Source of the DNA: Geosiphon pyriformis uo1
Taxonomy: Eukaryota; Fungi; Glomeromycota
NCBI GenBank assembly: GCA_016748015.1
Contig: JAAOMT010000003.1
Span: 1,120,373-1,184,372, forward strand
Direction: 5' to 3'
Length of the DNA stretch: 64,000 nucleotides
Numbering within the stretch: position 1 is the first letter of the stretch; every line of letters starts with the position of its first letter. Made by a program: the position numbers and the translations under genes. Below, piece by piece: positions 24,048 to 58,283 of the stretch. The notes below the pieces were generated by a model that ran no database searches, was not told the origin of the DNA, and saw only the letters and a list, made by a program, of their open reading frames with translations.

Positions 24048-24167
24048 ATTTAATTTTTTTATTTATTAAAGGAAGTGGTTATTATCAAAGTGAATTTATT
24101 GATTTAGTTGACAATTGGAATTGAAATGAGAATTTTTGACTTTTTTAATTTAATTCTTTGACAAGTT

Positions 24168-24222: not shown

Positions 24223-24677
24223 TATAGGATGATTTAGTATTATTAAATGACATAATTTGACTATAATTAAATCATGATTATGAAGGTTGATTCATCATGT
24301 TATCATATCTTTATAGAACAATGTAGAATTTGCAAGTACCTTCCTAAACAAAGTCGTGGTAAAAATTATTTGTCATGCTGGGAAATTTGTTTATGAGAAA
24401 TTCTGACTCAAAATATCCTTGAATGAAAATTTTTTACTCTGTCGCTTGAAAAAGGCTCTACTAATTCATAAGATGACTGAGTGTAAAAAATTGCACATTA
24501 TACAAATGGTGAGAATAAATGATTAACGATTTAAGAAAGAGAAAAAATTCACCTCATAATTTTCAACTTGGATCGACCAAAAATTCCCGGGGTGCATTCA
24601 CATGCCATCCATCTTTTAATTGTAAATCATAGATCCCAATTTTTTTTCATCATCTTTATTAACCTGGAACTGGCAAA

Positions 24678-29000: not shown

Positions 29001-29475
29001 AAGTATGAATACGCGTGTCATTAAGTGAACATACGCCCCTTCTTACATTGTCGGCATATAAAGCCTCTCCAACTTTCCACTTTATATCTCGATTCTCCTA
29101 TTGTTCTTTCATTAATTTTATCACTTATCTTGCTGATTGGGCATATCCCATGGTTAACCTTTTCTCAATTCTATTTCCTTTATAGGTAATGGAATCCTTT
29201 GGATTTACCGCAGATCTTCGCTCAAATACTGGTGGACAAGCTTTCCCCCAAGCAGTATTCTCGCATTGGTTTGTTGCCAAACTCTATTTTTCGAAGCTTG
29301 ACTTGGGTTTTACAATTATTAATGACCATTGTTTTTACTCTTTACTTATAGGCAAATAATGAACGGTATTGCGAATGAACCTGGTAAAGTGAACGATATT
29401 GTCAAGGCCGTAAGGAAGCGAAAGGGCCTCAGTGAGGAAATCCCATCACTTGACAAGTATTTGGATAAACTGTAA
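26094..29475 (+). CDS. EFT2: Translation elongation factor 2
   Basis: M|[11 protein letters not shown]|[31 protein letters not shown], diphthamide loop [12 protein letters not shown], ends YLDKL*; TATAAAT at 25981 and a pyrimidine-rich leader. Confidence 0.99.
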
Positions 29476-29954: not shown

Positions 29955-31290
29955 TTTGCATTAAAAATTAAGATACAACTATTACTTATTACAATATTAC
30001 AAAACTGTTCTAAAATAATTGTGGTTTATGAATTTTTCATACATGACCAGTTATCTAAGCTGATTAAAACTATATTATATTGAATTTATAAAAGAAAACT
30101 TATCTAATTTACTTAGTTTATTCATAATATTAACAAAACTATTGCTATTTGAAACCAAATTATTTATCTATTTAGCAGTTATATTTGTATTAAATTTAAT
30201 ATCAAAAGTTTAAAGCTTTTATATAATTATTAGTTTAGTATATGTTTATTATTTATATTACACTTTATTTTAAGATTAATTATCTTTTATTTAAATTACA
30301 AATTATTTTACCAAAATTGCTAATTTATTTTTTTATTATAAAAACTTTTTTATAATTAATAAAACAATATATTTAATTAATAAAGACAATTTTGTTAACA
30401 ATAATTTTAAAAAAGCCAACTTAAATTCAATTATAAAATAAATAAATTAACAATAAATTAAAAAACCAAAGAAAAAATAATTTTAACATAAAACTTCAAA
30501 TTGATTTAGTTAATTATATTAATAAAAAAAAAAAAAAACATCTTTTACTTAAAAAAAATTTTAATACTTAAAAAACATTAATAATTAAAGATTTTTTATC
30601 AAATATAATTTTTTTTTAAAATATTAATTTTAATAATAATAATAATATTTAAAAACCAAAAAATAAATTATATATTAAAAAATCAACTTATTAATTTTAA
30701 AAACAATATATTTAAAAAAATTATTTAACTTGATTTTGTAAATGTTTTTTAAAATAATAATTTTTTTTAATTGAAAAAAATCCTTATATTGTTTTTTTTA
30801 CAAAAATTAACCAATATAATAAAAAATATATAAAACTTAAAAAATATAATAATATATTATTATTAATTAATAAATTTTAATTTAACACTAAAAATTTTAC
30901 CAAAAACATTTAAAATTTTTAATATTATTTACAAAAATTTTTGGAAAAATATTATAAAAAACAATAATTACAAAAACAATACAAATTTAAATATTATTAA
31001 AAATTATGCAATTTTAAAAATAATAAAAATAAATAAATTAATAAATTTAATTTAAACAGCAATATTTAAAAATAGTTAAGATATAAATTTTATATAAAAA
31101 AGCTTAATATTGTTTTTAATAACCAATTTTAAATCAATAAATTTGTAAAAACTAAAAACAATTATAATATAAATTAATTTAATCTTTATAATTTTATTAA
31201 AAATAAAAATAAAAATTATTTATATAAAATTTTTTTAATAATTAAGAAATATTTTTTAATTATTATTAAAATTAATAAAATTTTTATTAT
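29922..31290 (-). mobile_element. Ghost LINE 3' region with (TAA)n tail
   Basis: Minus-strand GTTTTAATCAGCTTAGATAACTGGTCATGTATGAAAA (30027-30076) matches the LINE 3'UTR at 57024-57062; (TAT)n at 29922-29952; the rest is AT-saturated. Confidence 0.65.
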
Positions 31291-32361
31291 ATTATTGTCT
31301 TGTCAATCTCTTGGCCACTACAAGAGCAGAAGATTTTTTGAGAGAAATCACTTTATTTTATCCCTTTTTCTCTTGTTCTATTCAAGTCATTTCTTCTAAT
31401 ATAACCCCTTTCATCACGATGAAACCAGTAGGCTCATCTGCTAAAGCTTCTGATTCAGTTTCGGCTGGTTTGAGGACCTGTTTAAATGCTAAAAAAAATT
31501 GTTTGAATACCGTCTACTTCTGTGATATGTCCTACAAGAAACCAAAGAAGCATGTGGCTGGTATTATAGTTAATTTGTCTACAGGCCTTCTGAGCCTAGA
31601 AGATATCAGTAGTAATGGCATCAAGTTTGTAGTGTTTTGGGACAGCAAAGTTGGCAGTATTGCCAATAGCATAAGCAATCTATCAGATGTTAAAAATATG
31701 GTGAACACAGTAGTTGAAGAGACCAGCTATGCAAAATCAGATGAGGATGATGATATAAACAAAGTTACACCAAGGAAAACTCATACTCGAATGTATGTGC
31801 TAGAAAATCTGCCAAAGCAACCTTCTTTTAGCTGTATGAATGATGATAATAATGAGCTAGTAATTCCTCCTTGGGTGATTTTGGGATCCAATAAGCCGCC
31901 ACTGATTGAGTTACATGTCACAGATAAATAGAGCTTCAATTTATCAAAATTTTTTACACTTGATATTAATCTTTTAGCTGTACCTGATAGGACTGTTAGT
32001 AATAAGTTAATCTGTGTGAAAAAAAAATTTTATCAAGTAGATGGCTTTAGGAGAGCTTCTATTTCCTCAAAATTCCCAGGAATTATCAGATTCTCATTTA
32101 CTTCTGAATCTAGCATAAATAAGGCGAAAAAATTGGCTATCCATAAGAAAATTGTGGTAAATAATGATCTTAAAAGGGTTAGCAGCCATTCAGATAAGGA
32201 AATTGTTGTTAAAGAGATTTTGGTCGATCTTCTCAAATTGGCTGTAAAATCTGTTTTTTCTAAGTTTGGAAAAATTGTATCAATTAAGATACAATTGATT
32301 GGTTTGTAGCAGAAAGCTTTGGTAAAGTTTGAATCATTTAAAATAGCTAATTTGGTCACAA

Positions 32362-33346
32362 TGTTACCAGATGAAATTAGAGATATTATTTAACATGAAA
32401 TTATCTTATAATTCTTATCATTAATTAGCATATATTATCATTTCAAATAATCACTTATTACATTAGCAAAAATGTCCGAAATTATCATTTAATTAATAAC
32501 CCAAATTGTACACAACACAAATGTAACCTAATTGTGATGATCAATCATGCAATACCCTGAACTATGTAATATTTAGAAGTTCGCCGAAATTTGTAGAAAT
32601 TTGCCGAAATAATTGATAGTTCACCGAAATATCTAATAGTTCGCCAAAATAACTTGTAATTTGCCGAAATGTATCTTTAGTTCAGCAAAATTTTAGAAAA
32701 TAACAAAGTTCAAATTCATAGAATAGTGTTATGACAAGTTGTATAAAAGAAGAGCTTCTCTCTTCGAGAAAATGTATCTTACCTTAGATTTATCTCTTAA
32801 AAACCATTCCTATACACACAAAAAGAAATAAATATCAAATAATTCGAAAAAAAACCAAATTCTTTAATTATTGTACTTGAAAAATCCCCAAAACCCAATT
32901 AACATTTCGAAATTGATTAGCTACTAATTTCAGTAAACTGTTAGTGACTCCAGGCCTGGATAAAAAACGTTTCTCTTGACAAAATTCTATTTTTTTTACA
33001 TTTCTTTTATTTTCTTTTATTTTCTTATTACAATCATTGGGGTAGCCTACAGATGAGATTCCTGTAGAAGAGTTGACTTTCACAGCAAAGTAACTACACA
33101 TTTTTTTAGTGAGCTTCCAGATGAGCAATTTCTGGGAAAGAGTTGACGTTTACTACAACGTAACTACATAAAGCAATTGGCACGGAATTGGCCATTCCAC
33201 TCATAAGCCCAGCAAGTTCAAATTATAGGAGATAATTTGAAGATAAATTCAGTTACTGGAGGTTCAACCACATCCAGAAAATGTGAATTCACAGCAAATA
33301 AGTATCAACAACATTACAGAAAAGAGACCAAAAATCTTCGGTAACA
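32362..33346 (+). repeat. 5' LTR of Gypsy-1
   Basis: TG...CA ends, TATAAAAG at 32742, colinear with 40550-41534. Confidence 0.97.
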
Positions 33347-33365
33347 TTTGGTGCTCTCCCACGGA
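33347..33365 (+). promoter_or_regulatory. tRNA primer-binding site
   Basis: TT-TGGTGCTCTCCCACGG directly after the LTR, complementary to a tRNA ending ...GAGAGCA-CCA; tRNA identity not determined; same core at 51620-51638 (-). Confidence 0.8.
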
Positions 33366-33391
33366 AATAACACAGCAAAAACAAATTCAAA

Positions 33392-36300
33392 GTGACGACC
33401 ACACCAGACACAACTACTCTAGAATATTACCAATCAATTTACACCTACTGCAAGCAAAGATTCAACATTCCAGATGGAATTGAAGTTGTCAAGAAATCAG
33501 TATACCAATACATTGAAAATCACATCAACAATTATCTTTTTGGAAATTACAATATCTCAGAAGTTAAAAGCAATCTTTACAATAATTTAGCACATTATTC
33601 ACAGTTGGGAACTGAAGACCTTAATAGTGAAACACTTGCCACTTACTTTCACGAACTTAATTTTAACATTATCAAATACTGTGAAGAAACATATTCAGTG
33701 CAGTCTCAATACACTATTGATTTTGAATCGGAAACAGAAACAAGCAACAAAGGCAAAAACAAATTAAAGCAATATTCAAGAACCACCCCAAATACTCCAA
33801 CACTACCGAAAACAACTGCCAAATATTTACAAACATCTGAACAAGGAACCAGCTCAAAACTTCCACTTATTATCACACCTTTTCTAGCTTCACTTGCACA
33901 AGCACAAACACCTAATTCACCCTTGAATCGATTTGCAAAACCAGAAGATTTTACATCACTCAGAAGTCCCACCAGACAACAAGAACCCCTTCAAACTAGT
34001 TCCAATCTCCTTGATTTTCTAGCTGAAAATCAAAGTGAACACTCTGAGACAGCAGCAAATGAAGAAAACAACTCTGAAATAACTGAAGAAGAATCAATAG
34101 ACAGTGAAAACAAAGAAGACGAAATGACAACATATATCGCAAAAATCCCTGAATTCAATGGAGAAGATATTGAGACCAGTCTCCAAGAATGGCTCGATCA
34201 AGTTACTAAAGCTGGAGATGCAAATGGATGGAACGCTGCCAGAATGTTAAGAACAATTCCCTACTTTCTCAAAGGAACAGCANNNNNNNNNNNNNNNNNN
34301 NNNNNNNNNNNNNNNNNNNNNNNNNNNNNNNNNNNNNNNNCAATATTATCAAGTACCTGCTTGAAGACTGATTACACAAAATCAATTTACACCACAAAAC
34401 CGATACCAAGTAAACAACAGTAGAATCAGTTCGAACAACCAATTGGTTCCCCGAAATACCACTCAACCAAGATCCAACCATTACCACACTCAACTCAGTT
34501 ATTTAACAATGCCAGAAGAACAGGATTTTCACCATATTGCATCCTCAGAAGGTAGAGCTGCAGCCCAACAACAACAAAACCCTTCTCATAACCACACCAC
34601 TATTCCACCAGCCCGAATTACTGAAAATGCCAATCTTTCTGATATCTTTCCTTTTGAATTTGAAGCAAATGAATTACCATTTTTACTTAGCAATGCAACG
34701 GCTAATGAGCAAAAAGCCATCACTGCAATGTACGCAGAAGCTAAAGTAGAAGGAAAGCCAATTCACTTGATCCTAAACAGTGGATCTGTTGGAAGCATTA
34801 TTACCTACCAGTTAATGCAACAGTTGAAAAGAAATGTTGACCGACCAGCTCAAACAGTAATTGTCACTGCTGATGGCATGAAAAAGACACCAGTAGGAGA
34901 AATTGACAATTTTCTATTCACTCTTGATGGAATCACCATTCCAGTCAAAGTTCTTGTAATGGATGCACCCCAGTACCAAGCTCTCATCGGAAATGATTGG
35001 CTTTAAAAAGCCAATGCTAATCTGAATTGGGAAACACAAGAATTAACAATCTCTTACCAAGGACAACACGCCTGAGTACCTGCAATTTGTGGTACATTCA
35101 ACAAATGCTCTGAAAAAGCCCCAGCTTTTGAATTTGAACCAGAAGAAGAAAAACCAATAATCGAAACATTCATGGCTCTTGGATCAACGTCCAACTGGGC
35201 TGATGAAACAGAACAAGAACATTTTACCACATACACTAAACCCAAAACCTCTGGATGGAATATACCTTACTCAAAACCCAAACCAAGAAAACAACATCCC
35301 TATATTCCCCTTAAATATAAGAACTGCCACAAGAAACTATCATCAATGGGAGCCTGCATTTCACCTGAAGAAGAATATGAGAATCATACTTGTTATTACT
35401 GCAAAGCCTGCCACAGAGAGTCATGGGGCCATCTAATAAAAAGGAGCGGAAAATGGGACAACACTCCTTGTTTGACTTGTGGGGATATGCTACCAGAAGA
35501 ATGCAATTGGATTGATATAGCAATGAGAGGAGGCGTCTGCAATCAGACCTGCCAATATGCTTTATCAATTTCAGAAAAAGTAAAAAGAGGAACACCCTTT
35601 AATGCAGCATACAACAGTGCTTTCAACAAACTTTATTACTACCCTTATGATGCCAAGATGATTTTTGACTTAGCAATGGCATTAATTAATGGAGCTACCA
35701 AAGAAGATGTTCGTCAAATGAAGGAAGCAGAATACATTGAATACACTATGGAATTAGCTGGATTCAATTACGAAGATGAAATAGAAGTCTACCACCAAAT
35801 TGCAAGTCACACCTACCCAACTCAAGAAGCTCAAATTCAACGATTAGAGCAAATGAACATTAGGCTATGTGAAAAATGCATTATGCTTTGTGATGAACAG
35901 TGGTGTCCTGAATGCTATGCTCTTAGTATCCCCTTGCCCAGCGAGAATGATGAGAATGAAATTGAATTTGGAGAACCTGAAGAAATGGAAGAAATTGAAA
36001 CAACACCCATCTACCTTATTGAAAATCAGCCTGCCTTACAACTTAAATACTTCAACAACAATGGACAAGGAATAAAACCCAAAAAAGCACATGAAATTAA
36101 TGCTGGATATGACCTAAGATATCCAAGCAAGAATACTTTTGTTCTCAAACCCAAATCTCTCACAAAAATCAGTCTTAAAATTGCACTCAAAATCCCACCA
36201 GGAGCAATGGTTCAAATCGCCTTCTGGTCCTCTCTGGCAAGCAAAGGAATCAATGTCAGAGGAGGAATAATTGATGCTGGATATATTGGAGACATAACAG

Positions 36301-38309
36301 TGATGCTTCAAAATGAAACTGACAAACCATTCAAGATCGAACATGCTGAAAAAATTGCCCAAGCTATTTACCTACCCTTAATCAACATTTCAGGTTTGCA
36401 ACTAGTCAATCAAAGAGAACAATTAGGAAAAAGTGATAAAGAAACTCAAGGTTTTGGTTCAACTGGACGATTCACAGTTCCAGTTAATATAGCTCTTAAC
36501 ACACAGAACAAATCCCACCAGATTCTCAAACTTCCACAACCAATTACCATCTCACCCTTTGGAAAACATCCAGAAATTTACACTTGCACAAAGCCAACAA
36601 CCACACAACAAATTTTTGAGTCCAATGAACAAGTCTGCTTGAAACATAATATTTTGATCCCAAACATTTATATTCCAGAAGGAACAAAGAAAGTCCAAGT
36701 TACTTTTTACAACCCCAATAATTACCCCATAATTTTATTAAATAATTTAGAAATTGGAGTTATTCACAGTAATATATTTCAACAAGAATTACCCCAAACA
36801 GTCCCCGATTTCCCTGAAATTATTGGACATTCACTACTGAAAATCAACCCAAATTCTAGCTCTGAAAACTACCATGTTGTCATAGAAAAACTATCTCGAA
36901 TCAACATGGGACAACTTGAACTACAACAACAAACCCAGCTTAAAGAACTAATTGCAGAATTTGTTAATATTTTCGCCGAAAACAACAATGACTTAGGAAG
37001 AACTGATTTGGTTCAACACCAAATCTATACAGGAGATGCCAAACCCAGGCGACAATAAGCCTACCAAGTTGCTCCAGAAAGTCACCAATTTATCCGAGAA
37101 GAAATACAACGGATGCTTAACAATGGGCTTATTCAACCATCAATGAGCCCATAGGCCTCACCTGTGGTTCTAGTTAAAAAGAAAAATGGAAAGATACAAT
37201 TTTGTGTTGATTACTGACAACTCAACAGTGTCACTATTGGGGATGCCTACCCTCTTCCCCAAATTGATAACATGTTGGATGCTCTTGGAAAGTCCAAATA
37301 CTTTTCAACATTAGATTTAGAGAGTGGATACTGGCAAGTTGCTATGGATCCCAAAGACCGCCCCAAAACAGCATTCACCACTCAAGGAGGAAATTATGAG
37401 TTCAATGTAATGCCTTTTGGATTATACAATGCACCAGCAACATTCCAAAGACTCATGGATGTTGTTTACAAAGGCCTCCTTTGGAAATCAGTAGTAGTTT
37501 ATCTTGATGACACTGATGTTTATTCACCATTTTTCAAGCTATATTTAATTCACCTGTGAGAAGTTTTTCAACAATTATGGAAAGCAGGATTGAAATTGAA
37601 CATTGAAAAATGCTATTTCGGAAAGACAAGTTTAGCTTTTCTTGGTCACATTGTTAGCAAAGATGGAATTAAACCAGACCCCAGAAAAATCAGTACTGTC
37701 AAAAACTTCAAGACTCCACGAAATACCACAGAATTAAGAGGATTTATTGGATTAGCATCCTATTACCAAAAATTCATCAAAGGATTCTCAGAAATTGCAA
37801 AAACCCTCAACCAGCTCACTACGAAAAATGTCAAATACAAATGGACAAAAGAACACCAAAATGCCTTCGAGATACTCAAGGAAAAACTCACAACAGCCCC
37901 AATTCTCGCTTATCCAGACTTTAGCAACCGATTCCAGTTAGCAACTGACGCTTCTTATACTGCCTTTGGTGCCATCCTATCACAGTTAGATGACAATGGA
38001 AATGAGTGAGTAATTGCTTATGCTAGTAAAATATTAAAGCCAGCTGAAAAGAACTACCCCATAACAAAATTAGAAACTGCAGCAGTAATCTGGGCCCTAC
38101 ATCACTTCAACCTTTATCTCAGACCCAAAAAATTTGATATTATCACTGATAATATTGGACTTAAATGGCTTCAAAACAAAAACACCCAGCTGAATGCAAA
38201 ACAAACCCGATGGACAGGATTTTTAGCTAATTACCAATACATCGTACACCACAAACCAGGAAAACTCCACACCAATGTTGATTGTCTCTCAAGAATGAGG
38301 CAAGATTAG
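33392..38309 (+). pseudogene. Gypsy-1 Gag-PR-(Cys-rich)-dUTPase-RT-RNaseH polyprotein with nonsense mutations
   Basis: Gag IPEFNGED..EWL; PR LILNSGS (DSGS in copy 2) and IGNDWL; dUTPase AGYDL, GIIDAGY, KIAQ, GFGSTG; RT LDLESGYWQ, MPFGL, YLDD; RH LATDAS, LETAAVIWAL, NVDCLSR; all post-gap pieces lie in one frame. Confidence 0.93.
34283..34340. other. Assembly gap (58 N) in Gag; true gap probably several hundred bp
   Basis: Copy 2 has the Gag core, CCHC knuckle (CHYCGILEHWKCDC) and Q-rich tract at ~50000-50750, which are absent here. Confidence 0.9.
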
Positions 38310-38358
38310 AAAACAAAACCAACACCCATTTGAATTAACAGCATCAAAACAACAAACA

Positions 38359-39744
38359 ATGAACCCCAAAAACTACAACAATCTCAAACAATATTTGGAG
38401 ACATTAACAATCCCAACAGATTGGTCCCCAGACAAAAAACATTGGTTACAACAACAAGCCAAACAATATTTTCTACACAACAACATTATCTATTATCGAA
38501 ATCTCAAAAACCCAACCAAACCACTCAGATTAATACAAGAACAGAAAAAAGAGACCATTTTATACAATATACACTCAAATTCTTCATCAGCACACTTTGG
38601 AAAAGATAGTACCACCCAAAGAACACTAGAATACTACTTTTGGCCTCGAATGAGAAAAGACATTCACGAATATGTCGAATCTTGTGATATTTGTCAAAGA
38701 AGAGGAGGAACTCGCCCTACAAAACCTTTAAATCCAATCAAAGTTGGACAGCCTTTTGACAGAGTTGGTATCGATTTAGTTGGACCACTATCTATCACCA
38801 CTCAAGGAAACCGTTATATTGCAGTAGCTGTAAACTATCTTACTAAATGGCCTGAAGCCAGAGCCATTTAACAAGCAGATGCAAAATCAGTAACAAATTT
38901 CATCTACGAAGACATCATTTATAGACATAGATGTCCAATTAAACTTTTATCTGATTAGGGAACACACTTTGTAAACAACCTGATACAAAAAATTTGTGAA
39001 CGATTCAATGTCAAAAGACCTCTGTCTTCGCCCTACCATCCACAAACAAATGGACTTGTGGAACAGTTTAACAGAACATTGTGTGAGTCATTAGCCAAAG
39101 TCTCAACTGATTTTAAGCAAGAATGGGATCTCTTTATCCCATCAGTGTTACTAGCATATAGGACATTAAAACAAGATACCACAAAACACACACCATTTGA
39201 TTTAACTTATAGAAGGATGGCAACATTACCAATTAGTTTTACAGTGGAAACATATCCAGCACAACTGATCAATAAAAACAATTTCCAAGAAATGCTTCAG
39301 CGAAGAGCCTACACTCTGCTTAGCACATTGGAAGGAAAACAACAAATAGCAGCCACCCATATTGAACACTCCCAAGCTCAACAAAAAGAACGGCATGATG
39401 ACAAATTGCCTTCAGTCACCAATAAATTCAAAATTGAAAACAAAGTTTTCTTATACAAAACTAAAGCTGAAAAACAATGGAGTGGAAAATTTGAAAATAA
39501 ATGGGATGGACCATTCTTTATTCATGAAGTCTTAGGCAATGGATCATACAAGCTAAGACTTGATAACAAAATCCTAGCAAAAGTTGCACATGGAGATCGT
39601 TTGAAACACTATCATTCCAGAAACAATCCTGAACCATTAATTCCACAAATTGGTACACATTCCCCTTTGGTCAGTCCCAAAGACATTCCCCGAAACTTAG
39701 AACCAATAGTTGTCATTGAACAATCTTCCAACCTGAACACTTAA
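38359..39744 (+). pseudogene. Gypsy-1 integrase, in its own ORF
   Basis: HHCC (H..AHFG...CDICQ), GIDLVGP, YHPQTNGLVE, GPF motif KWDGPFFIHEVLGNGSYKL; no chromodomain; own ATG in a different frame from RH. Confidence 0.9.
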
Positions 39745-39861
39745 TTTAATTTTATTAGTTATTTTCTTATAATTTAGAAACAATCTCACAAAAACAAAAC
39801 AAAAATAACATAAAAACCCATACACCAAAAAATAATTTTTTTTTATTTCAAATCGCTTATA

Positions 39862-40581
39862 ATGACTATTCCTCAAAACATTTAACAATTATCCCAAAAA
39901 CTAATGTTAGCTTTAAAAACAATACCCGAATTATCCATTACTGTTACTGGAAACCACATTAATTATACCCAAACAGAAGTAGTTACAAATTTAGCCCCAA
40001 ATTCACGAAAATATCACCCGTATAAAAAGAACACAAGAAGTTATACTGGAATTCACCTCCCAGAACTTTTAAAGCTTGCTTTAAGAGAAAACCTAATGCC
40101 CACTCCAATTAGTATTCCACCAAATGCTACAATTCAACAAAAACTTCAACTGTGTCTCAATGAGAAAAACACTGAATATCCTCCAATCTATAGATATTTT
40201 CACATAGAAAAAACACTCTATGAACGGAAACTGGAACTTATAACAGCAAACCTCACAAAAGAGGCTATTCAGAAACAACTCCACAATGAATTCAAAACAA
40301 CAACTGGATCAACAAACAGTCACTACAGACTTAAAGCTGCCCTTAGACTTTATGACCTATTCCACACCTGTGAAAACGTACTACAAAACCCAATTTTTCA
40401 ACCTTTGAAAATTCAATACATTGGAAAGCTCACAGAACTGAAATTTCAACAATTTTCAGACCAAATTTCTTCAATAATTTTGGATTATTATCTGGAAATA
40501 ACAAACAGTACTTGGACTTTGACGGAGCTTAGTCTTGAGGAGGAGGTTATGTTACCAGATGAAATTAGAGATATTATTTAA
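39862..40581 (+). CDS. Gypsy-1 ORF3 (env position, unknown soluble basic/helical protein)
   Basis: ATG 39862 (one CAA>TAA at codon 8, intact in copy 2); reads through the PPT and stops inside the 3' LTR; homolog at 43767-44469. Confidence 0.8.
40535..40547 (+). promoter_or_regulatory. Polypurine tract
   Basis: GAGGAGGAGG just before the 3' LTR; GAGAAGAAGG in copy 2 (43790-43800, -). Confidence 0.8.
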
Positions 40582-41534
40582 CATGAAATTATCTTATAAT
40601 TCCTATCATTAATTAGCATATATTATCATTTCAAATGATCACTTATTACATTAGCAAAAATGTCTGAAATTATCATTTAATTAATAACCCAAATTGTACA
40701 CAACACAAATGTAACCTAATTACGATGATCAATCATGCAATACCCCGAACTATGTAACATTCAGAAGTTTGCCGAAATTTGTAGAAATTCACCGAAATAA
40801 TTGATAGTTCACCGAAATATCTAATAGTTTGCCAAAATAACTTGTAATTTGCCAAAATGTATCTTTAATTCAGCGAAATTTTAGAAAATAGCAAAGTTCA
40901 AGTTCATAGAATAGTGTTATGACAAGTTGTATAAAAAAAGAGCTTCTCTCTTCGAGAAAATGTATCTTACCTTAGATTTATCTCTTAAAAACCATTCCTA
41001 TACACACAAAAAGAAATAAATATCAAATAATTCGAAAAAAAACCAAATTCTTTAATTATTGTACTTGGAAAATTCCCAAAACCCAACTAACATTTTAAAA
41101 TTGATTAGCTACCAATTTCAGTAAACTGTTAATGACTCCAGGCCTGGATAGAAAACGTTTCCCTCGACAAAATTCTATTTTTTTTACATTTCTTTTATTT
41201 TCTTTTATTTTCTTATTACAATCATTGGGGTAGTCTACAGACGAGATTCCTGTAGAAGAATTGACTTTCACAGCAAAGTAACTACACATTTTTTTAGTGA
41301 GCTTCCAGATGAGCAATTTCTGGGAAAGAGTTGACGTTTATTACAACGTAACTACATAAAGCAACTGGCATGGAATTGGCCATTCCACTCATAAGCCCAG
41401 CAAGTTCAAATTATAGGAGATAATTTGAAGATAAATTCAGTTACTGGAGGTTCAACCACATCCAGAAAACATGAATTCACAGCAAATAAGTATCAACAAC
41501 ATTACAGAAAAGAGACCAAAAACCTCCAGTAATA
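40550..41534 (+). repeat. 3' LTR of Gypsy-1
   Basis: 985 bp, no indels versus the 5' LTR; terminal CA mutated to TA. Confidence 0.97.
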
Positions 41535-42818
41535 ACAGCTAGATAGTCTGTTTTCATGAGAAAAGCTTCTGTTTGTGTGGTAAAAGCAGTTGATGATAAA
41601 CAATTGTGGATTTCCAGAGATCTGCATTGGGCATTGCTTTATACTTTTCCAATTAGTACTATGGCTCATAATTTTTCTAATTTGTTGGAATTATATGATG
41701 AGAAGACTTGTTTTATTGGCTGTAATTCCAATTTATATGTGCATAATAGATGTGTAATTGTGTGTTTTGTTGACGAGACATTTAAATTGGCTGCTATTGG
41801 TTTTACTTTGGTGTTTAAGGGTGTAAATTTGCATTGGACTAGTTTTTTTTTGGCCCATTGTGCTTATTGCAAACAGTTTGGTCATATTTTTACAGAGTGT
41901 TTATTGGGTGGAAATTCTGGCATTCATGGTAAGCAGATAGTAACTTCTCAGGATCAGGTCTATTTGGCCAACATATATAAGAGGAAGCAGGCATCAATCA
42001 TTTGCCCAGTTTCTTTTGGTGGGAAAACTTGAGCTCAAGTTGCTGGTGGTTCTTCCCCTCATGTGGGTTTATCGGATCTTTTTGGTACTAATTCATCTTC
42101 AAGTGTAAAACCTGTCTTATTGGTTTCTGACTCTCTTGGTAATTCCTGTTTGGTTGATCGATTGGCCTCTCTAAAATGCTCTTTAGGGCTCTTGACAGAT
42201 TAGGTTTCGATTATTATAAGAAAATTGAGCTTTGTGGAATTGGTGTCTTTGGCATCCAAATCTTATGTTCCTCCTCCAGTTGTTCTTGAACCTGTTATGT
42301 CTAATTTGGATTCGGATATAGCCATGGATGATACTCTGCTGTTTCCTCCTCCCTTTCTTTTAGTTGTTACTGCAAACTCAGTTACTGATCTTAGTTCAAG
42401 TAGTTCTAAAGTTCTGACCACCAAGATGGGTGGTTTAGAATTTAAGATGGTGGCTTTAAAGGTGTCAGTTGAATCTGTTTTGGAAAGATTAGATTGTTTA
42501 TGCTCTGGTTTGGGTTTATCAACTTCTCTTACTTTCCAATGAATAACTTCATGTAGAAATTTGCAATGTGTAATGTTCAAGATATTAATATTCCTGCCAA
42601 GCAGAAGGACATTATCTGTTGACATAAAGATTTTGAGAATTTGGTTTTGATAATTACAGAGATGAAGCTGAGGTTTAGCAACAGGTCTTGGATTAGGGAT
42701 AAGTTTGATGAAGTCAGGGTCTTTTTATCTGGGTTGGACAAGGGTTTTCTTGGTGCTGGGATTGCAATTATTATAAACACTTCTCTAGCTTGTCATATTT
42801 GTAAGGTTTTTGAGATGC

Positions 42819-43786
42819 TGTTACTGGAAGTTTTTGGTCTCTTTTCTTAATGGTTGTTGATGTCTGTTTGCTGTAAATTCACATTTTCTGGATGTGGTTG
42901 AACTTCTAGTAGCTGAATTTATCTTTAAATTATCTTTTATAATTTGAACTGCTGGGCTTATAAGTAGAATGGCCAATTCCGTGCCAGTTACTTTGTGTAG
43001 TTATGTTGTAGTAAACGTCAACTTTTTTTCAGGAATTGCTCATCTGGAAGCTCACTAAAAATGTGTAGTTACTTTGCTGTAAAAGTCAACTCTTCTACAG
43101 AAATTTTGTCTGTAAGCTACCCTAATGATTGTAATAAGAAAAGAAAAGAAAAATAAAAGAAATGTAAAAGAAATAAAATTTTATCAAGGGAAACGTTTTC
43201 TATCCAGGCCTGAAGTCACTAACAGTTTACTGAAATTGGTAGCTAATCAATTTCAAAATGTTAGTTGGATTTGGAGATTTTCCAAGTGCAATAATTAAAG
43301 AATTTGGTTTTTTGAATTATTTGATATTTATTTCTTTTTGTGTGTATAGGAATGGTTCTAAATGATAAATCTAAAGTAAGATACATTTTCTCGAAAAGAG
43401 AAGCTCTTCTTTTATACAACTTGTTGTAGTACTAGTCTATAAACTTGAACTTTTTTTTTTACTGTGGTTTCAATAAACTAAAGATACCTTTCAGCGAACT
43501 TACAAGTTATTTCTATAAACTATTGAATATTTCGGTGAACTATTAATTATTTCGGCAAATTTCTACAAATTTCAGCAAACTCTTGAATATTAAATGATTT
43601 AGGGTATTGTGTAATTTGATCATTCTAATTTCTATAGTACAAATTGGGTTATTAATTGATTGATAATATTCGATAATTTGATTAAATAATAAGTGATAAT
43701 TTGAATGCTAATATATGCTAATTTAATGGTAGAAATTATAAAGGTAATATTATGTTAATTAATATCTCAAGTTTTGGTTGGTAATA
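42819..43786 (-). repeat. 3' LTR of Gypsy-2
   Basis: Colinear with 51639-52606; initial TG mutated to TA. Confidence 0.95.
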
Positions 43787-44469
43787 TAACCTTCTTCTCA
43801 AGACTGAGCTCCGTCAAAGTCCAAGTATTGTCTGCACATTCCAGATAGTAATCTAAAATTACTGAAGAAATTTGGTCTGAAAATTGTTGAAATTTCAGTT
43901 CTGTGAGTTTCCTAATGTATTAGATTTTCAGTGGTTGTAAAATTGAGTTTTATAGAACATTTTCACAGGTGTGAAATAGGTCATAAAGTTTAAGAGCTGC
44001 TTTAAGTTTGTAGCGACTGTTTGTCAGTCCAGCCATTGTCTTAAATTTGTTGTAGAGTTGTTTCTGAATGGCTTCTTTTGTGAGGTTGGCTGTTGTGAGT
44101 TCTAGTTTTTGTTCATGCAGTGTTTTTCCAATGTGAAAATATTTATAGATTGGAGGGTATTCATTGTTTTTTTCATTAAGACACTGTTGAAGTTTTTGTT
44201 GTGGCATTTAGTGGAATGTCAATAGGTGGGAACAACAAATTTTCTCTCAAGGCAAGCTTCAAAAGTTCTGGTAAGTGAATTTCAGAATAACTTCTAGTGT
44301 TCTTTTTATAAGAGTAATAATTTCGTAATTTTGGGGATAAGGTTGTGGCTGTTTCTGTTTGAGTATAATTAATATGTTTTCCTGTAATAGTAATAGATAA
44401 TTCAGGTATTGTTTTTAAAGCTAACATTAGTTTTTGGAATAATTGTTGAATGTTTTGTGGAATAGTCAT
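43767..44469 (-). pseudogene. Gypsy-2 ORF3 (frameshifted)
   Basis: MTIPQNIQQLFQKLMLALKTIPELS... and QQKLQQCLNEKNNEYPPIYKYFHIGKTL... match copy-1 ORF3. Confidence 0.8.
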
Positions 44470-44597: not shown

Positions 44598-45983
44598 TTA
44601 AGTGTTCAAGTTGGGAGGTTGTTTAATGACAACTATTAATTCCAAATTTTGGGAAATATCTTCAGGGTTAATTAAAGGAAAATGTGTACCAATTTGTGAG
44701 ATTAATGGTTTAGGATGTATTTTAGAGTGATAATGTTTCAATCGATCTCCATGTGCAACTTTTGCTAGTATTTTCCCATCAAGTCTTAACTTGTATGATC
44801 CATTTCTTAAGATTTCATGAACAAAGAATGGTCTATCTTATTTATGTTCAAATTTTCCACTCTATTGTTTTTCAGTCTTAGTTTGGTATAAAAGAACTTT
44901 ATTTCCAACTTTAAATTTGTTTGTAACTGGTGACAGTTTGTTATCATGTCTCTCTTTTTGTTGGGTTTGTGAATTTTCAATGTGAGTGGCTGCTATTTGT
45001 CTTTTTCTTTCTAAAATACTGAGAAAAGTATAAGCTCTTTGCTGAAGTGTTTCTTGTAAGTTTTTTTCTGTGATTGGTTGTACTGAGTATGTTTCTACTG
45101 TGAATTCAATTGGTAGTTTTGTTGTTCTTCCATAAGTAAGATCAAATGGTATGTGTTTTGTTGTATCTTGTTTTAGTGTTCTGTATGCTAGTAACATTGA
45201 TGGAATAAAAATATCCCATTTCTGCTCAAAATCTGTTAAAACTTTGGCTAGTGATTCACACAATGTTCTGTTGAAACGTTCTACTAATCCATTTGTCTGT
45301 GGATAGTAAGGTGAAGATAAAGGTCTTTTGACATTAAATTGTTCACAAATTTCTTGTACCAGGTTGTTCACAAAATGTGTTCCCTGATTGGATAAAAGTT
45401 CAATTGGACATCCATGTCTACAAATAATGTCTTCATAGATAAAATTTGCTACTGATTTTGTATCTGCTCATTGAATAGCTCTGGCTTCGGGCCATTTGGT
45501 AAGATAATCTATTGCTACTGCTATGTATTGGTTTTCTTGCATAGTGATAGATAGTGGTCCGACTAAATCAATACCAACTCGGTCAAAAGGTTGTCCAACT
45601 TTGATTGAATTTAAAAATTCAGTAGGGCATGTTCCTTCTTTTTTTTAATAACTATTACAAAATTCAACATATTGATGTATGTCTCTTCTCATTCGGGGCC
45701 AAAAATAGTATTTTAGTATTCTTTGGATGGTGCTGTCTTTTCCAAAGTATGCTGATAAAGAATCTGAGTACATGTTGTATAATATAGTCTCTTTTTCATG
45801 TTCTTGTATTAATCTGAATAGTTTGTCTGGGTTTTTGAAATTTCAATGATAAATAATATTATTGTATAGGAAATATTGTCTGGCTTGTTGTTGTAATTAA
45901 TGGTTTTCATCTGAAGACCAATCTGTTGGGATTGTTAATGTCTTCAAATATTGTTTGAGATTGTTGTAGTCTTTTGAATTCAT
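44598..45983 (-). pseudogene. Gypsy-2 integrase ORF
   Basis: MNSKDYNNLKQYL..., GIDLVGP, YYPQTNGLVERFN, ends PNLNT*. Confidence 0.88.
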
Positions 45984-46031
45984 TGTTTGTTGGTTATTAA
46001 GTTGGTTAAGTTGAATGTTAATTTGTGTTCT

Positions 46032-49000
46032 CTAATCTTGTCTCATTTTGGAAAGGCAGTCAACATTGGTGTGGAGTTTTCCTGGTTTGTAATGTACTAT
46101 ATATTAGTAGTTTGCCAAAAATTCTGTCTATCTGGTTTGTTTTGTATTTAACTTCATGTTTTTGTTTTGTAACCATTTGAGTTCAATATTATCAGTAATA
46201 ATATCAAATTCCTTTAGGTTTGAGATAAAGATCAAAGTAGTGTAAGACCCATATTACTGCTGCAGTTTCTAATTCCATTGCTGGATAGTTTTTTTTGGCT
46301 GGTTTTAGTGTTCTACTGGTGTAAGCAATTACTCGTTCATTGCCGCTGTCATCTAATTGTGATAAGATGGTACCAAAAGTAGTATATAAAGCATCTGTGG
46401 CTAATCGGAATCGGTTACTGAAGTCTGAGTAGGCAAGAATTGAAGCTGTGATGAGCTTTTTTTTGAGTATTTTGAATGCATTTTGGTATTCTTCTGTCCA
46501 CTTATATTCTGCGTTTTTAGTGTTAAGTTGGTTAAGAGGTTTTGCAATCTCTGAGAATCCTTTAATGAATTTTTGATAATAGAAAGCTAATCCAACAAAT
46601 CCTCTTAATTCTGTGGTATTCTGTGGAATTTTGAAATTTTTAACAGCATTGATTTTTCCTGGATCTGGTTTAACTCCTTTTCCATTAACAATGTAACCAA
46701 GAAAAGCCAAACTTGTTTTTCCAAAATGGCATTTTTCAATATTTAATTTTAATCCTGCTTTATGTAATCGTTGAAAAACTTCTCACAGGTGAATTAGATA
46801 GAGTTCAAAAGATGGTGAATAAACATCAGTGTTATCAAGGTAGACAACTACTGATTTCCAAAGAAGTCCAGTATATACAACATCCATGAGTCTCTGAAAT
46901 GTTGCTGGGGCATTAGACAATCCAAAGAGCATTACATTGAATTCGTAGTTTCTTTCTTGCGTGGTAAATGCTGTTTTGGGACAGTTTTTGGGATCCATGG
47001 CAACTTGTCAGTATCCACTTTCTAAATTCAATGTTGAGAAATATTTGGATTTTCCAAGTGCATCTAACATATCATTAATTCGAAGAAGGGGGTAGGCATC
47101 TCCAATGGTGACATTGTTTAATTGTTTATAGTCAACGCAAAATCAAATTTTTCTATTTTTTTTTAACAAGTACTATTGGTGAAGCTCATGGGCTTATTAA
47201 TGATTGGATGAGCCCATTGTTGAGCATTCTTTGGACTTCTTCTCAGATAAATTGATGGCTTTCTGGGGCAATTTGGTATGCTTGTTGTCATCTAGGTTTG
47301 GTATCTCCTGTATAGATTTGATGTTGAACCAAATCAGTTCTTCCTAAATCATTGTTGTTTTCAGCAAATATGTCTGCATGTTCTGCAATTAACTCCTTGA
47401 GCTGATTCTGTTGTTAGGGTTTTAATTGTTCCATGTTAATTCAGGATAACTTTCCAATAACAATATGGTAGTTTTTAGAGCTGGGTTTTGGATTGAATTT
47501 TGGAAGAGAATGTCCAATAATTTCCGAAAAATTTAAAACTGTTTGGGGTAATTCTTGTTGAAAGATTTTACTATAAATAATTCCAATTTCTAAATTATTT
47601 AGTAAAATGATGGGGTGATGATTAGGGTTGTAAAAAGTAACTTGGACTTTCTTCATTCCTTTTGGAAGATAAATGTTTGGGATTGAGATGCCATGTTTCA
47701 TGCAAATTTGTTCATTGGCTTTGAAGATTTGTTAAGTAGTAGTGGGTTTTACACAGATATAAATTTTGTAATGTTCTTCAAAGAGTTAAATGGTTATTGG
47801 TTGTAGAAGTCTGAGAATTTGGTGAGATTCATTCTGTGTATTAAGGACTATATTAACTGGAACCATGAATTGTCCAGTTGAACCAAAATCTTGGGTTCCT
47901 CTCTTGCTTTTCCCTAATTGTTCTCTTTGATTGACTAATTGCAAACCCGAAATGTTGATTAAGGGTAAATAAATAGCTTGGGCAATCTTTTCAGTGTGTT
48001 CAATCTTGAATGGTTTGTCAGTTTCATTTTGAAGCATTACTGTAATATCTCCAGTGTATCCAGCATCAATAATTCCTCCTCTTATGTTGATTTTTTTGCT
48101 TGTTAAAGAGGATCAGAAGGTGATTTGCACCATCGTTCCTGGTGGGATTTCAAGGACAATTTTTAGATTAATTTTTGTAAAAGATTTTGGTTGAAGAATG
48201 AGGGTATTTTTCTCTGGATATCTTAGATCATATCCAGCATCAATTTCGTGGGCTTTTTCAGGCTTGATTTCTTGTCTTTTATTGTTAAAGTATTTGAATA
48301 TTATGACAGGTTGGTTTTCAGTAAGATAAATAAGAGTTATTGGAACTTTTTCATCCTGTATTCCAAATTCGATTTCATGCTGGTCATCTTTAATTGGTAG
48401 TGGGATGCTAAAAGCATAGCATTCAGGACACCACTGTTCATCACAAGACATAATGCATTCTTCACATAGCCTAATGTTCATTTGCTCTAATCATTAAATT
48501 TGAGCTTCTTGGGTTGAATAAGTGTGACTTGTAATTTGGTGGTAGGCTTCTACTTCATTTTCATAATCAAATCCAGCTAATTCTATAGTGTATTCAATGT
48601 ATTCTGCTTCTTTTATTTGACAAACATCTTCTTTGGTAGCTCTATTAACTAATGTCATTGCTAAGTCAAAAATCATCTCAGCATCATGGGGGTAGTGATA
48701 AAGTTTGTTAAGAACACTGTTGTATGCTGCATCAAAAGGTGTTCTTCTTTTGATTTTTTCTGAAATTGATAAAGCATATTGGCAGGTTTGATCGCAGACT
48801 CCTCCTCTTATTGCTACATTAATCCAATTGCATTCTTCTGGTAGCATATCTCCACAAGTCAAACAAGGGGTGTTGTCCCATTTTCCACTTCTTTTTATTA
48901 GATGGCCCCATTATTTTCTGTGGCAAGTCTTACAGTAATAACAAGTATGATTTTCATATTCTTCTTTAGGTAAAATGCAGGCTCCCATTGATGAAAGTTT

Positions 49001-51592
49001 TTTGTTACAATTTCTGCATTTAAGTGGAATGTAAGGTGATTGTTTTTGTGGTTCTGGTATAGAATATCTAACTTTTTTCCATCTTCTTGATTCTTCAAAA
49101 AATTTTTGTTCTGTTTTCTTAGCCCAATTGGATGTTGATCCAAGAGCCATGTAGGTTTCAGTGAGGGGCATTTCTTTCTTTTCTTCAAATTCTAGTACTG
49201 GAGCTTTTTTTGATTGTTTTTTAAAAGTTCCACATGTAGCAGATACTATGGTGTGTTGTCCTTGATATGAGATTTTTAATTCTTGAGTTTCCCAATCTAA
49301 ATTTGCATTGGCCTTGAGAAGCCAATCATTTCCGATGAGAGCTTAGTATTAGGGTGCATCCATGACTAGGACTTTAACTGAAATAGTGATTCCATCAATA
49401 GTGAATAGAAAATTATTAATTTCTCCTACTGGTGTCTTCTTCATACCATCTGCTGTAATGATGACAGTTTGAGCTGGTCTGTCAACAGTTTGTTGAAGCT
49501 GTTGCATTAATTGGTAGGTGATAATACTTCTAGTAGATCCACTGTCTAATATTAAGCGAATTGGTTTTTTTTCTACTTCAGCTTCAGTATACATTGCTGT
49601 AATAGCTTTTTGTTTGTTAACTGCTACATTGTTGAGTAGAGATGGTGATTCATTGGCTTCAAATTCAAATGGAAAGATGTCTAAAAAATTGGTATTTCAG
49701 GCAATTCTGGCTGGTGGGATAGTCTTGTTAGAAGAGTTTTGCCTTGGTGCTGTAGCTTCACTTTCAAAAAGTGCAGTTTGCTAAAAATTTGATTCCTCTG
49801 GTATTGTAAGATAACTGGGTTGAGTGTGATAGGGTGTGGGCCTATGTTGATTCGAATTTTGAGTGGTTAATTGGTTGTTGGAATTAAATCTGTTGTTGTT
49901 TGTTGAAAAACGGTTTTGTGGTGTAAATTGATTATGTTGAATCAATTTTCTAGCTGGCACTTGATATTGTGGTGTGAATGGTTGTTGATACTGTTGTTGG
50001 ATTGGTTGTAGAGCAGATTGATAATAGTAGTTTGGATATTGTGGCCTTGGTAAATATTGAGCTGGTGATGATAGATAATATAATTGTTGTGATTAGGAAT
50101 AATGTTGATTATTCCTCTGTTGTTGGTCTTGTTGCAATTTTCTACAATCGCATTTCCAGTGTTCTAGAATTCCACAATAATGACAATTTTGGATTTGGTT
50201 GTTGGATAGTAGTCCGAAGTTGTTTTGATTGCATTGTTGTGGGAGTTGGTATCTTTGTGGTTGTTGTAATTACTGCAGCTGCTGTTGTTGCTGTTGGTTA
50301 GTGAAGTAGTTTTCAACTTTTTTGGTTAATTGGTCAATCTTTTCTTCAGCTGCTGAACTGGTTTCTCCAATAACCAGATTAACAAATTTGGTACAGTTGG
50401 CTTCTTCTATGGCCATTTCATAGTTTTTTGCCTGTTGAATAGCAGTGGCTAAATCTTCTGGTGCATGTGGGTGAACTTTCTTAATAAGTTTGTCTTTTAG
50501 TCCAGCAATGAATTGATCCAAAATTTGTGCATTGGAATAGTATTTATTGGTTTCCAATTGGCAAATCCTTCTAAGCAGTTTGTTGAATTTTCCAAGATAG
50601 GTCATAACTGATTCACTTGGTTCTTGCTTGATATTTCAGAACTGATTTCGAAGGGTAATGGAAATATTATTGTCAGTGAACTGTTCTAGAAAAGCAGTTT
50701 TGAATGCTTTCTAGTTTTCTGGTGGGGCTTCCAAGTTTTCAAACCATTCGTCAGCCATTCCTTGTAAGAAATATGAAATTGCTTTTAACATTCTGACAGC
50801 ATTCCAACCATTTGCATCTTCTGCTTTTGAGACTTTGTCAAGCCATTTTTGAGAACTGGTTTTGTTGTCTTCTTCTGTGAACTCAGGAATTTTTGCAATA
50901 TATGTGGAGACCATTTCTTCTTTGTTTTCTGAGTCTTCTGTTTCTTGTTCTGATTTGGTCTCTTTACTTTAATTTTCTGCTAAGTAATCAATAAGATTTG
51001 TGCTGGTTAATATTGGTTCCTGTTATTGAATAAAGCTTTTGGGTGACTGAAAATCTTCTATTCTTAAAAGCCGAATAAGTGGTGAGCTTAGTGTTTGTGG
51101 TTGAGCAAGTGAAGCTGGAAATGGTGTGATTGAGAGTGGTAATTTAAAGCTGGTTCCTTGTTCTGGAGTTTGTAAATGTTTGGCAGTGGTTTTAGGTGTA
51201 TTGGGAGTAGTTCTGAGTTTTTGTTTCTTTTTTTCTTTTTCTTCTTCTGTTTCTGATTTAAAACTAAGAGAAAATTTCTGTTCTATTGGGTAATTCTCTT
51301 TATAATACTGAATGATATTGAAGTTGAGTTCTTGGAAGTATGTTTCAAGTATTTGACTGTTAAAATCCTGAGTGTTTAGACGAGAATAATGTATTAAGCT
51401 TTCATATAAGTTGTGTCTAACTTCTGAAATATTGTAGTCTCCAAGAAGATAATTATTGATGCAATTTTTAATGTACTGGTAAAGTGTTTTCTTGAATGTT
51501 TCAATTCTGTCTGGGATGTTAAATCTCTGCTTGCAGTGGGTGTAGATTGACTAATAATACTCTAGAGTTCTTGAATCTGTTTGAGTTGTCAC
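46032..51592 (-). pseudogene. Gypsy-2 Gag-PR-(Cys-rich)-dUTPase-RT-RNaseH polyprotein
   Basis: GTG 51592; Gag, CCHC knuckle, LILDSGS, CxxC clusters, DAGYDL, DFGSTG, YLDN (from YLDD), LATDA, ends MRQD-TAG. Confidence 0.92.
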
Positions 51593-51638: not shown

Positions 51639-52606
51639 TGTTACTGGAGGTTTTTGGTCTCTTTTCTTAATGGTTGTTGATACCTGTTTGCTGTAAATTC
51701 ACGTTTTCTGGATGTGGTTGAACCTCCAGTAGCTGAATTTATCTTCAAATTATCTCCTATAATTTGAACTACTGGGCTTATAAGTGGAATGGCCAATTCC
51801 ATGCCAGTTACTTTGTGTAGTTACATTGTAGTAAATGTCAACTCTTTCCCAGGAATTGCTCATCTAAAAGCTCACTAAAAATGTGTAGTTACTTTGCTGT
51901 GAAAGTTAACTTTTCTACAGGAATCTCGTCTGTAGACTACCCTAATGATTGTAATAAGAAAATAAAAGAAAAATAAAAGAAATGTAAAAGAAATAAAATT
52001 TTATCAAGGGAAACATTTTCTATCCAGGCCTGGAGTCACTAACAGTTTACTGAAATTGATAGCTAATCAATTTCAAAATGTTAGTTGGATTTGGAGATTT
52101 TCCAAGTACAATAATTAAAGAATTTGGTTTTTTGAATTATTTGATATTTATTTCTTTTTGTGTGTATAGGAATGGTTCTAAATGATAAATCTAAAGTAAG
52201 ATACATTTTCTCGAAAAGAGAAGCTCTTCTTTTATACAACTTGTTGTAGTACTAGTCTATAAACTTGAACTTTTTTCTTTATTATGGTTTCAATGAACTA
52301 AAGATATTTTTCGGCAAACTTACAAGTTATTTCTACAAACTATTGAATATTTCGGTGAACTATTAATTATTTCAGCAAATTTCTACAAATTTTGGCAAAC
52401 TCTTGAATATTAAATGGTTCAGGATATTATGTAATTTGATCATTCTAATTTCTATAGTACAAATTGGGTTATTAATTGATTGATAATATTCGATAATTTG
52501 ATTAAATAATAAGTGATAATTTGAACGCTAATATATGCTAATTTAATGGTAAAAATTATAAGAGTAATATTATGTTAATTAATATTTCAAGTTTCGGTTG
52601 ATAACA
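51639..52606 (-). repeat. 5' LTR of Gypsy-2
   Basis: TGTTATC...GTAACA followed by PBS TTTGGTGCTCT. Confidence 0.96.
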
Positions 52607-57840: not shown

Positions 57841-58283
57841 ATAGCAGCTTGAAAATTTTGCTGGGGCAGATATCCAATCAAATGAATATCCAACGCCCGA
57901 GCATGTACGAATACAATAGGTGATGAGCATGCACTGTCGGTTTCATGGTGAAACTTGTTTTTATTCGTATTTTTGGAAACAAATTTAACCCCCGCTTGTC
58001 TTCGAGATCACCGCTTCTTGATAGGCCGCGTTCAATTTTTACTAGATCAATAATTTGGCGTGCCTGTTCTTTGTATAAAAAAACATTCACTCATTTCGCG
58101 TTAAGCTAAAAACCTTTTAGTTGTATAGATAGTAAGCACATTAGCTCTTTTTTGCTACAGTATTGAAAAAAATTTAAATAAATTTAATTTGACAAAAGTT
58201 TTTCCTTTTTATTATTTTACCAAGTAAAGCCTCAATATATACAGGTATTCAATTTTTCGTTATCATCTACAAACTAAAAAGCA

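Follow-up and report, generated by a model that had tools for sequence, protein, structure and literature searches.

We report that the integrase of a Ty3/Gypsy (Metaviridae) retrotransposon family in the fungus Geosiphon pyriformis uo1 is very probably encoded as a separate cistron, behind the stop codon of RNase H; we put the probability of this reading at roughly 0.93. The family is represented by two decayed copies of a long terminal repeat (LTR) element, facing each other 1.3 kb apart in a 64,000-nt window of contig JAAOMT010000003.1 (positions 1,120,373 to 1,184,372), and coordinates below are those of the window unless a locus name precedes them. The split is not a product of decay. The separate integrase cistron and a conserved third open reading frame (ORF3), which belongs to the same arrangement, form a real, lineage-wide variant of Ty3/Gypsy. 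For LTR elements and retroviruses, the textbook route of integrase into the particle is to be made within Gag-Pol. An old, abundant and successful lineage breaks this rule, and must therefore translate and deliver its integrase in another way.

The junction between RNase H and integrase

The RNase H frame ends in the same manner in both copies, with ...SRMRQD before a TAG at 38307-38309 in copy 1 and ...SKMRQD before a TAG at 46034-46032 in copy 2. These stops, and the A/C-rich spacers between them and the integrase ATGs at 38359 and 45983, had been described in a sequence-only reading of the window and are confirmed here. The features of the junction are as follows.

38307..38309, plus strand: stop codon closing RNase H in copy 1, four residues past the DxLSR motif
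38310..38358, plus strand: RNase H-integrase spacer of copy 1, 49 nt, A/C-rich (57% A, 4% G), AUG-free and unstructured (folding about 0 kcal/mol)
38359..39744, plus strand: cistron 2 of copy 1, integrase of 461 amino acids with HHCC motif, DDE core and SH3-like C-terminus, and two internal decay stops
45984..46031, minus strand: RNase H-integrase spacer of copy 2, 48 nt, AUG-free and likewise unfolded, its sole AG pairs sitting at the stop
44598..45983, minus strand: integrase cistron of copy 2, its protein 75% identical to that of copy 1

The same reading held that the spacer has diverged more than its flanks, and we also see this: identity between the copies is 66% in the spacer, against 84% and 86% for the 200 nt on each side, although identity is just as low in 6% of the coding region's 49-column windows. 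Third codon positions of the reverse transcriptase (RT)-RNase H region are 67% identical (second positions, 91%), and the spacer thus drifts in the manner of DNA under no constraint.

Both copies are full of decay stops in the pol frame (7 in copy 1 and 20 in copy 2, two of them at the same codon in both), and it could be argued that the shared TAG is one more of these, a CAG-to-TAG mutation inherited by two dead copies of an ordinary fused Pol. Other genomic copies were therefore sampled via Logan contigs of one DNA sequencing run, possibly the window's own source; 2378 contigs aligned over 38100-38600 and 325 over the 111-nt junction, with contig ends unscored. Two other runs yielded no aligned contigs. 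Across the junction only four substitutions reach 2%, at 38304, 38314, 38332 and 38344, and none lies within the stop codon. The integrase ATG falls outside the scored part of the junction, and a variant at the ATG is present in the 38100-38600 alignment. A distinct subfamily, comprising 18 of the 325 contigs (22 in the longer alignment), diverges after the second base of the stop and reads TAA followed by an unrelated A/C-rich spacer. Further spacer types occur in other contigs, three of which lose 2+1 nt and retain the frame of copy 1. Because contigs near their ends were unscored, this is strong but not exhaustive evidence for a family-wide stop. The caveat of CAG-to-TAG decay in the sequence-only reading does not hold, as neither CAG nor TGG is found at the stop at 2% or above; with intact relatives that are split and a peak of start Met residues, both described below, we regard inherited decay as very improbable.

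The position of the integrase start is itself conserved. Of 880 homologs of 254-809 residues, the best 120 have lengths of 360-453 residues. In 75 of the 120 the first residue is a Met placed, like that of the window protein, exactly 78 residues ahead of the second HHCC His; the starts of 100 lie 71-79 residues ahead of it. None of the 54 fused Pol proteins with both landmarks placed has a Met at -78, and five have one anywhere from -79 to -71. Of the named homologs, a Geosiphon pyriformis gene model is closest (81%); the best matches also include Rhizophagus proteins, and Rhizophagus irregularis carries intact integrase genes of this stand-alone type (P0011, P0040, P0087 and P0104). A search for longer proteins gave 119 matches, only five of them with more than 40% identity over most of the query. 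Three of these five (P0123, P0125 and P0126) are NCBI gene models in which pieces of RT-RNase H or of the integrase N-terminus are missing, and which appear to bridge the junction by predicted introns. In P0124, RT, RNase H, integrase and a terminal ORF3 share one clean, natural-looking frame, and only about five residues separate RNase H from the integrase start region. Among solved structures, the integrase profile matches the Ty3-G Gag-Pol polyprotein best (7q5b, residues 1063-1450, E 8e-52).

We fetched 83 related loci from metagenome data, 43 of which include the RNase H end upstream of integrase. All 18 loci scoring at least 385 on the integrase profile are split, each with its own integrase ATG, while at scores of 378 or below 21 of 25 are fused and four are broken, lacking an ATG where one would be expected. 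The cut was chosen with the data in view, and stand-alone integrases were the source of the profile. One locus, L007, is an intact three-cistron element (1434 amino acids, 62 nt, 418 amino acids, 129 nt, 147 amino acids). A search of viral contigs gave three weak, uninformative loci only.

For comparison of spacing and frame, 25 junctions were assembled from the 18 split loci, five loci with a tail or extra ORF upstream, and the two window copies. They are not near-copies of one another: compared in pairs, the integrases of 20 of them are 32-65% identical (median 42%). Six junctions overlap or lie at most 5 nt apart (TAATG, ATGA, -8, -11, +2 and +5), 15 are separated by 30-190 nt and four by 278-727 nt. 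The integrase lies in frame 0, 1 or 2 relative to the upstream ORF in 5, 7 and 13 cases, respectively. At 16 of the 25 junctions a stop in the integrase frame bars fusion by one readthrough or one frameshift, and a single recoding event is still possible at nine, by readthrough at three (copy 2 included) and by a shift at six (copy 1 included). In short, the proposal that integrase is its own cistron is backed by the fixed start Met, the conservation of the stop, the split relatives and the junctions closed to recoding. The pattern named beforehand as speaking for a fused Pol, a CAG or TGG consensus with a spacer always 3n in length and stop-free, is not what we find: there is no CAG or TGG, and the relatives' spacers fall in all three frames.

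Some observations weigh against this reading, or limit its reach. The two window copies alone are weak evidence because both are so decayed, and their 49/48 frame difference may be a decay indel, as copy 2 has two other frameshifts in RT-RNase H. Moreover, copy 1 has an integrase frame that is already open 8 nt ahead of the stop, and the stop and the ATG of copy 2 share a frame with no stop in between, so that a +1 shift in the former or readthrough in the latter is formally possible for the window family. Such recoding would yield a rare Gag-RT-RNase H-integrase fusion and package the integrase normally. The three contigs that retain the frame of copy 1, and the nine junctions still open to one event, are compatible with it; the 16 closed junctions are not, the spacer drifts at the third-position rate, the swap of TAG for TAA comes with a new spacer, and a fixed Met and start context would go unexplained. 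We consider recoding improbable. On the side of lineage history, the score cut is no clean clade boundary, because the fused proteins P0128-P0132 score 385-432, like the weaker split loci, and the fused P0124 and P0128 sit among split forms in the integrase tree. In a careful tree of 33 rows, from which gene-model proteins were left out, P0124 groups with split L012 and L016 (100/98) and P0128 with split L008 and L013 (93/92), and the split state needs 3-4 changes. The backbone of the RT tree, whose set held no named reference elements, did not resolve. A single clade of split elements and in-group long proteins is not rejected (p-AU 0.37 for RT, 0.63 for integrase), which is no proof of a clade. 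Given the tree and the clade test, one old split with re-fusions and several splits are both possible.

Translation of the integrase

We lean towards reinitiation, i.e. termination followed by rescanning to the next AUG, as the way in which this integrase would be translated. The full-length RNA would be read as a polycistron: a fraction of terminating ribosomes would stay on the RNA after the RNase H stop, traverse the unstructured A/C-rich spacer, and initiate at the first AUG in strong context. The outcome would be less integrase than Gag, a ratio that the single Gag-RT frame could not otherwise arrange. The free integrase would then join the particle or cDNA by non-covalent binding, with ORF3 as a likely accessory; this is the weakest step. 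Reinitiation after long ORFs is documented in two fungal viruses, CHV1 and HvV190S, as well as in CaMV and the retrotransposon SART1, and its efficiency in caliciviruses is 3-20% (PMC10275272). Yeast, after selection, translates a second cistron across spacers of 10-65 nt (PMC11952965).

Rescanning after termination is favoured because it predicts a continuum from stop/start overlaps to AUG-free spacers that begin at the stop. The 15 spacers of 30-190 nt hold one AUG in 1297 nt, against 10.4 in dinucleotide shuffles (0 of 400 as low), and the 150 nt 5' of each stop at these same junctions hold 56 AUGs in 2250 nt. In 14 of the 15, the AUG-free stretch starts directly at the stop. A purine stands at -3 of the integrase ATG in 21 of 25 junctions (57% background, p 0.004). 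Between integrase and ORF3, the relatives show overlaps of 4 and 38 nt and six AUG-free spacers of 32-129 nt.

Several findings count against reinitiation. Without the subgroup that bears the RNA motif described below, the AUG deficit shrinks to 1 vs 3.5 (30 of 400 shuffles), and AUG is not uniquely rare, since GTA is equally depleted in the 15 spacers (4 vs 12.9), perhaps reflecting avoidance of splice donors. Reinitiation of the TURBS type, directed by a 'termination upstream ribosome-binding site', requires stop and start within about 20-30 nt (PMC10275272), and the 48-49 nt of the window copies lie outside this range. The 18S-complementary TURBS motif (UGGGA), expected upstream of the stop, is found in neither window copy and in one of the 25 junctions (3.0 expected by chance). 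As neither the distance nor the motif fits, a reinitiation signal here would be of another kind. Finally, the four spacers of 278-727 nt hold AUGs in chance numbers (30 vs 30.6) and are AUG-free over their last 60-151 nt only, which looks more like a 5' untranslated region (UTR).

This last point favours the main rival, in which integrase is a separate gene on its own subgenomic RNA, produced from an internal promoter or by splicing from the 5' leader, and the spacer is its 5' UTR. The strong start context would suit ordinary cap-dependent scanning, a YAG lies 20 nt ahead of the ATG in copy 1, and splicing to subgenomic RNAs is known for Ogre and EVADE (PMC12786077). There is no conserved splice acceptor among the 15 spacers, a comparison that covers the spacers and not sites further upstream within RNase H; YAG is missing altogether from three of them, and copy 2 has only the TAG of the stop itself. 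The AUG-free zone also begins right at the stop in 14 of 15 cases, and the six overlapping or abutting junctions likewise count against this rival. On balance we think a subgenomic RNA rather unlikely.

A second rival, internal ribosome entry on the full-length RNA, would work via the A-rich unstructured spacer in the window family and via a folded motif in a related subgroup. In 403 kb of sequence this RNA motif of about 40 nt is confined to nine related loci, its 3' end lying 2-17 nt upstream of the integrase AUG:

L002:582-631, L007:4460-4509, L011:487-536, L022:172-221, L028:442-491, L030:5-54, L035:489-538, L004:182-231 and L041:16-65: RNA motif directly 5' of the integrase start

Its two-helix structure was drawn from seven loci, and two more were found by the model without having been used to build it. 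In this structure 97% of cells are paired and 6 of 11 pairs show two-sided changes, with 0 of 500 shuffles as high. The motif shows that the start region of integrase is under selection. A model search did not find it in the window, five of the loci searched against Rfam gave no match (best E 0.91, elsewhere), and its exact pattern has no match among viral contigs. Similar A/C-rich stretches before the Gag GUG and before ORF3 would also be in keeping with internal entry. The absence of the folded motif from the window, the little room afforded by 30-50 nt spacers and stop/start overlaps, and the failure to explain an AUG-free zone starting at the stop make internal entry a doubtful explanation, only slightly better placed than recoding. 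The motif nonetheless adds to the difficulties of reinitiation, in that a covarying hairpin 2-17 nt before the AUG would hinder plain scanning. It fits plain scanning poorly, and the lineage may therefore use more than one route.

Element layout and the third ORF

Copy 1 lies on the plus strand at 32362-41534 and copy 2 on the minus strand at 52606-42819; they are 81% identical to each other, and their own LTR pairs are 96% and 94% identical, respectively. Pfam domains follow the Gypsy order of capsid, protease, dUTPase, RT, RNase H and integrase. The remaining features are listed by copy.

32362..33346, plus strand: 5' LTR of copy 1, TG...CA ends
33349..33364, plus strand: primer-binding-site-like stretch of copy 1, starting TGG 2 nt past the LTR, read from sequence
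33392..38309, plus strand: cistron 1 of copy 1, Gag-protease-Cys-rich insert-dUTPase-RT-RNase H, probable GUG start (Pfam Asp_protease_2, dUTPase, RVT_1, RT_RNaseH)
39745..39861, plus strand: integrase-ORF3 spacer of copy 1, 117 nt, AUG-free in sequence
39862..40581, plus strand: cistron 3 of copy 1, ORF3, 239 codons with one decay stop, a distant member of a lineage-specific helical family
40537..40546, plus strand: polypurine tract of copy 1, read from sequence
40550..41534, plus strand: 3' LTR of copy 1, paired with the 5' LTR
51639..52606, minus strand: 5' LTR of copy 2
46032..51592, minus strand: cistron 1 of copy 2, Gag capsid, protease, dUTPase, RT and RNase H, from GTG at 51592 to the stop at 46034-46032
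43760..44469, minus strand: ORF3 of copy 2, frameshifted, lower end approximate, its ATG at 44469 behind a 128-nt AUG-free spacer
42819..43786, minus strand: 3' LTR of copy 2, paired with the 5' LTR

Direct TG...CA LTRs, a primer-binding site, a polypurine tract, the order protease-RT-RNase H-integrase and a Gypsy-type HHCC/DDE integrase all place the family in Ty3/Gypsy, as do the Ty3-type Gag capsid and protease of copy 2 (Retrotrans_gag 5e-13, Ty3_capsid 5e-7, Asp_protease_2). An integrase within a Pol polyprotein, which is typical of Ty3/Gypsy though not its phylogenetic definition, is not found. As a possible target-site duplication, the 4-nt flanks mismatch at one and two positions, all of them transitions.

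Cistron 1 of copy 1 has a 58-N assembly gap at 34283, and its seven internal decay stops all lie 3' of the gap; that of copy 2 has many decay stops in addition to its two frameshifts. The frames are nevertheless complementary: copy 1 is in a single frame from protease to RNase H, and copy 2 from the shared GTG to RT, spanning the part lost to the gap in copy 1. A layout of Gag-protease-(Cys-rich)-dUTPase-RT-RNase H, integrase and ORF3 as three cistrons, put forward from the sequence alone, is thus supported by the frames of both copies and by the intact relative L007. In copy 1 the Gag frame runs open from position 33371 and has its first in-frame ATG only at 34124. About 244 Gag-frame codons conserved between the copies lie 5' of this first ATG, and both copies have a GTG after an A/C-rich stretch, which suggests that Gag translation may start at a non-AUG codon (GUG).

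The ORFs 3' of integrase in nine related loci form one family. A profile matches ORF3 in 13 related loci, nine of which were used to build it, as well as in P0123, P0124 and both window copies; it matches no fused out-group locus. The window ORF3 is the best match in the whole window (E 0.003, or 6e-6 with a richer profile) and is distant from the rest of the family (hhalign probability 9.5, E 0.003). The member from L006 has a confidently predicted all-helical domain (pLDDT 92). ORF3 belongs to no Pfam family and has no Foldseek match in PDB or BFVD. A VIA structural match (best Z 5.1, root-mean-square deviation 3.2 over 69 residues) was not accepted, nor were atlas matches of 0.91-0.94, which had only 133-152 of 256 features in common. 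This lack of accepted matches does not make the fold new. Because ORF3 is fused to the integrase C-terminus in P0124, we infer that the two work together, and ORF3 is likely an accessory part of the integrase module.

A bolder and tentative picture, which we hold to be possible rather than probable, is that of a true polycistronic fungal Gypsy lineage, in which one RNA would carry at least three cistrons read by serial reinitiation over AUG-free spacers. ORF3 would then be a reinitiation promoter of new fold, a fungal counterpart of the caulimovirus reinitiation factor TAV, or else the loader of free integrase, and one subgroup would have acquired a new structured RNA at the integrase start. 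The TAV-like role is conjectural, because ORF3 matches nothing searched in sequence or fold.

In some relatives additional coding sequence precedes the integrase. An ORF with an Mrr_cat_2 restriction-endonuclease domain (E 5e-9) at L018:521-1237 overlaps the integrase start as ATGA and is itself preceded by another ORF; these are extra cistrons in this lineage. A Cys/His-rich C-terminal tail on RNase H is 315 or 587 residues long (L007:3500-4441 and L020:4500-6273), and the ORFs that end before integrase in L002, L011, L028 and L035 are by eye similar to the L007 tail.

Related systems and neighbouring sequence

Canonically, RT, RNase H and integrase are all part of Pol (PMC12786077), and fungal and rotifer elements with a dUTPase between protease and RT are known (PMC6431247). 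The window element shares LTRs, primer-binding site, polypurine tract, Ty3-type capsid and domain order with Ty3/Gypsy elements such as yeast Ty3, and differs from them in having its integrase outside Pol, followed by a conserved third ORF. As in CHV1, HvV190S, caliciviruses and SART1, a second cistron starts near the stop of a long first ORF, and several relatives share the TAATG or ATGA overlap; unlike those systems, the window has a 48-49 nt gap and no TURBS motif, and its downstream product is integrase. Caulimoviruses, in which TAV acts, are likewise reverse-transcribing elements with several closely spaced ORFs on one RNA (PMC10275272), whereas the window element has LTRs and an integrase. 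In CsRn1-clade Gypsy elements such as PwRn1 the ORFs are also separated (PMC2582038), but between gag and pol rather than between RNase H and integrase.

Ginger1 and Ginger2 DNA transposons have a stand-alone Gypsy-like integrase (PMC2836005), together with terminal inverted repeats and no RT or RNase H, whereas the window integrase lies within an LTR element, behind RT-RNase H. A Ginger identity was ruled out by the direct LTRs and the upstream RT-RNase H. The Ginger-like integrases P0139 and P0140, so labelled from their Ulp1 domain, do not group with the window integrase or the other split ones.

No LTR element with a separate integrase cistron was found in a literature search that missed most subscription papers, Repbase and supplements. 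The excerpts available of PMC2582038, PMC6431247, PMC2836005, 10.1101/2021.03.30.436303, PMC13468544, PMC11943222 and PMC12786077 do not describe a separate integrase ORF.

The lineage offers natural, compact polycistronic signals that may work in fungi, with the fused relative P0124 as a natural control for the split arrangement. There are consequences for annotation too: in mycorrhizal fungi, predicted introns within gene models appear to span the junction, and stand-alone genes annotated there as 'integrase core domain' probably belong to such elements.

Decayed fragments of other elements lie between and beyond the two copies (41535-42818 and 52700-57100), including an ORF with RNase_H (PF00075) at 55583-56545. 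Blocks of 7-20% G+C occur at 17000-23000, 30000-31300 and 57000-58000, against a background of 35%. The window also carries ordinary host genes, namely PGAP1-like (2083-2829), Hsp20 (23493-24062), a HAD hydrolase (24663-25598), elongation factor 2 (27055-29028) and a FYVE protein (60034-61557).

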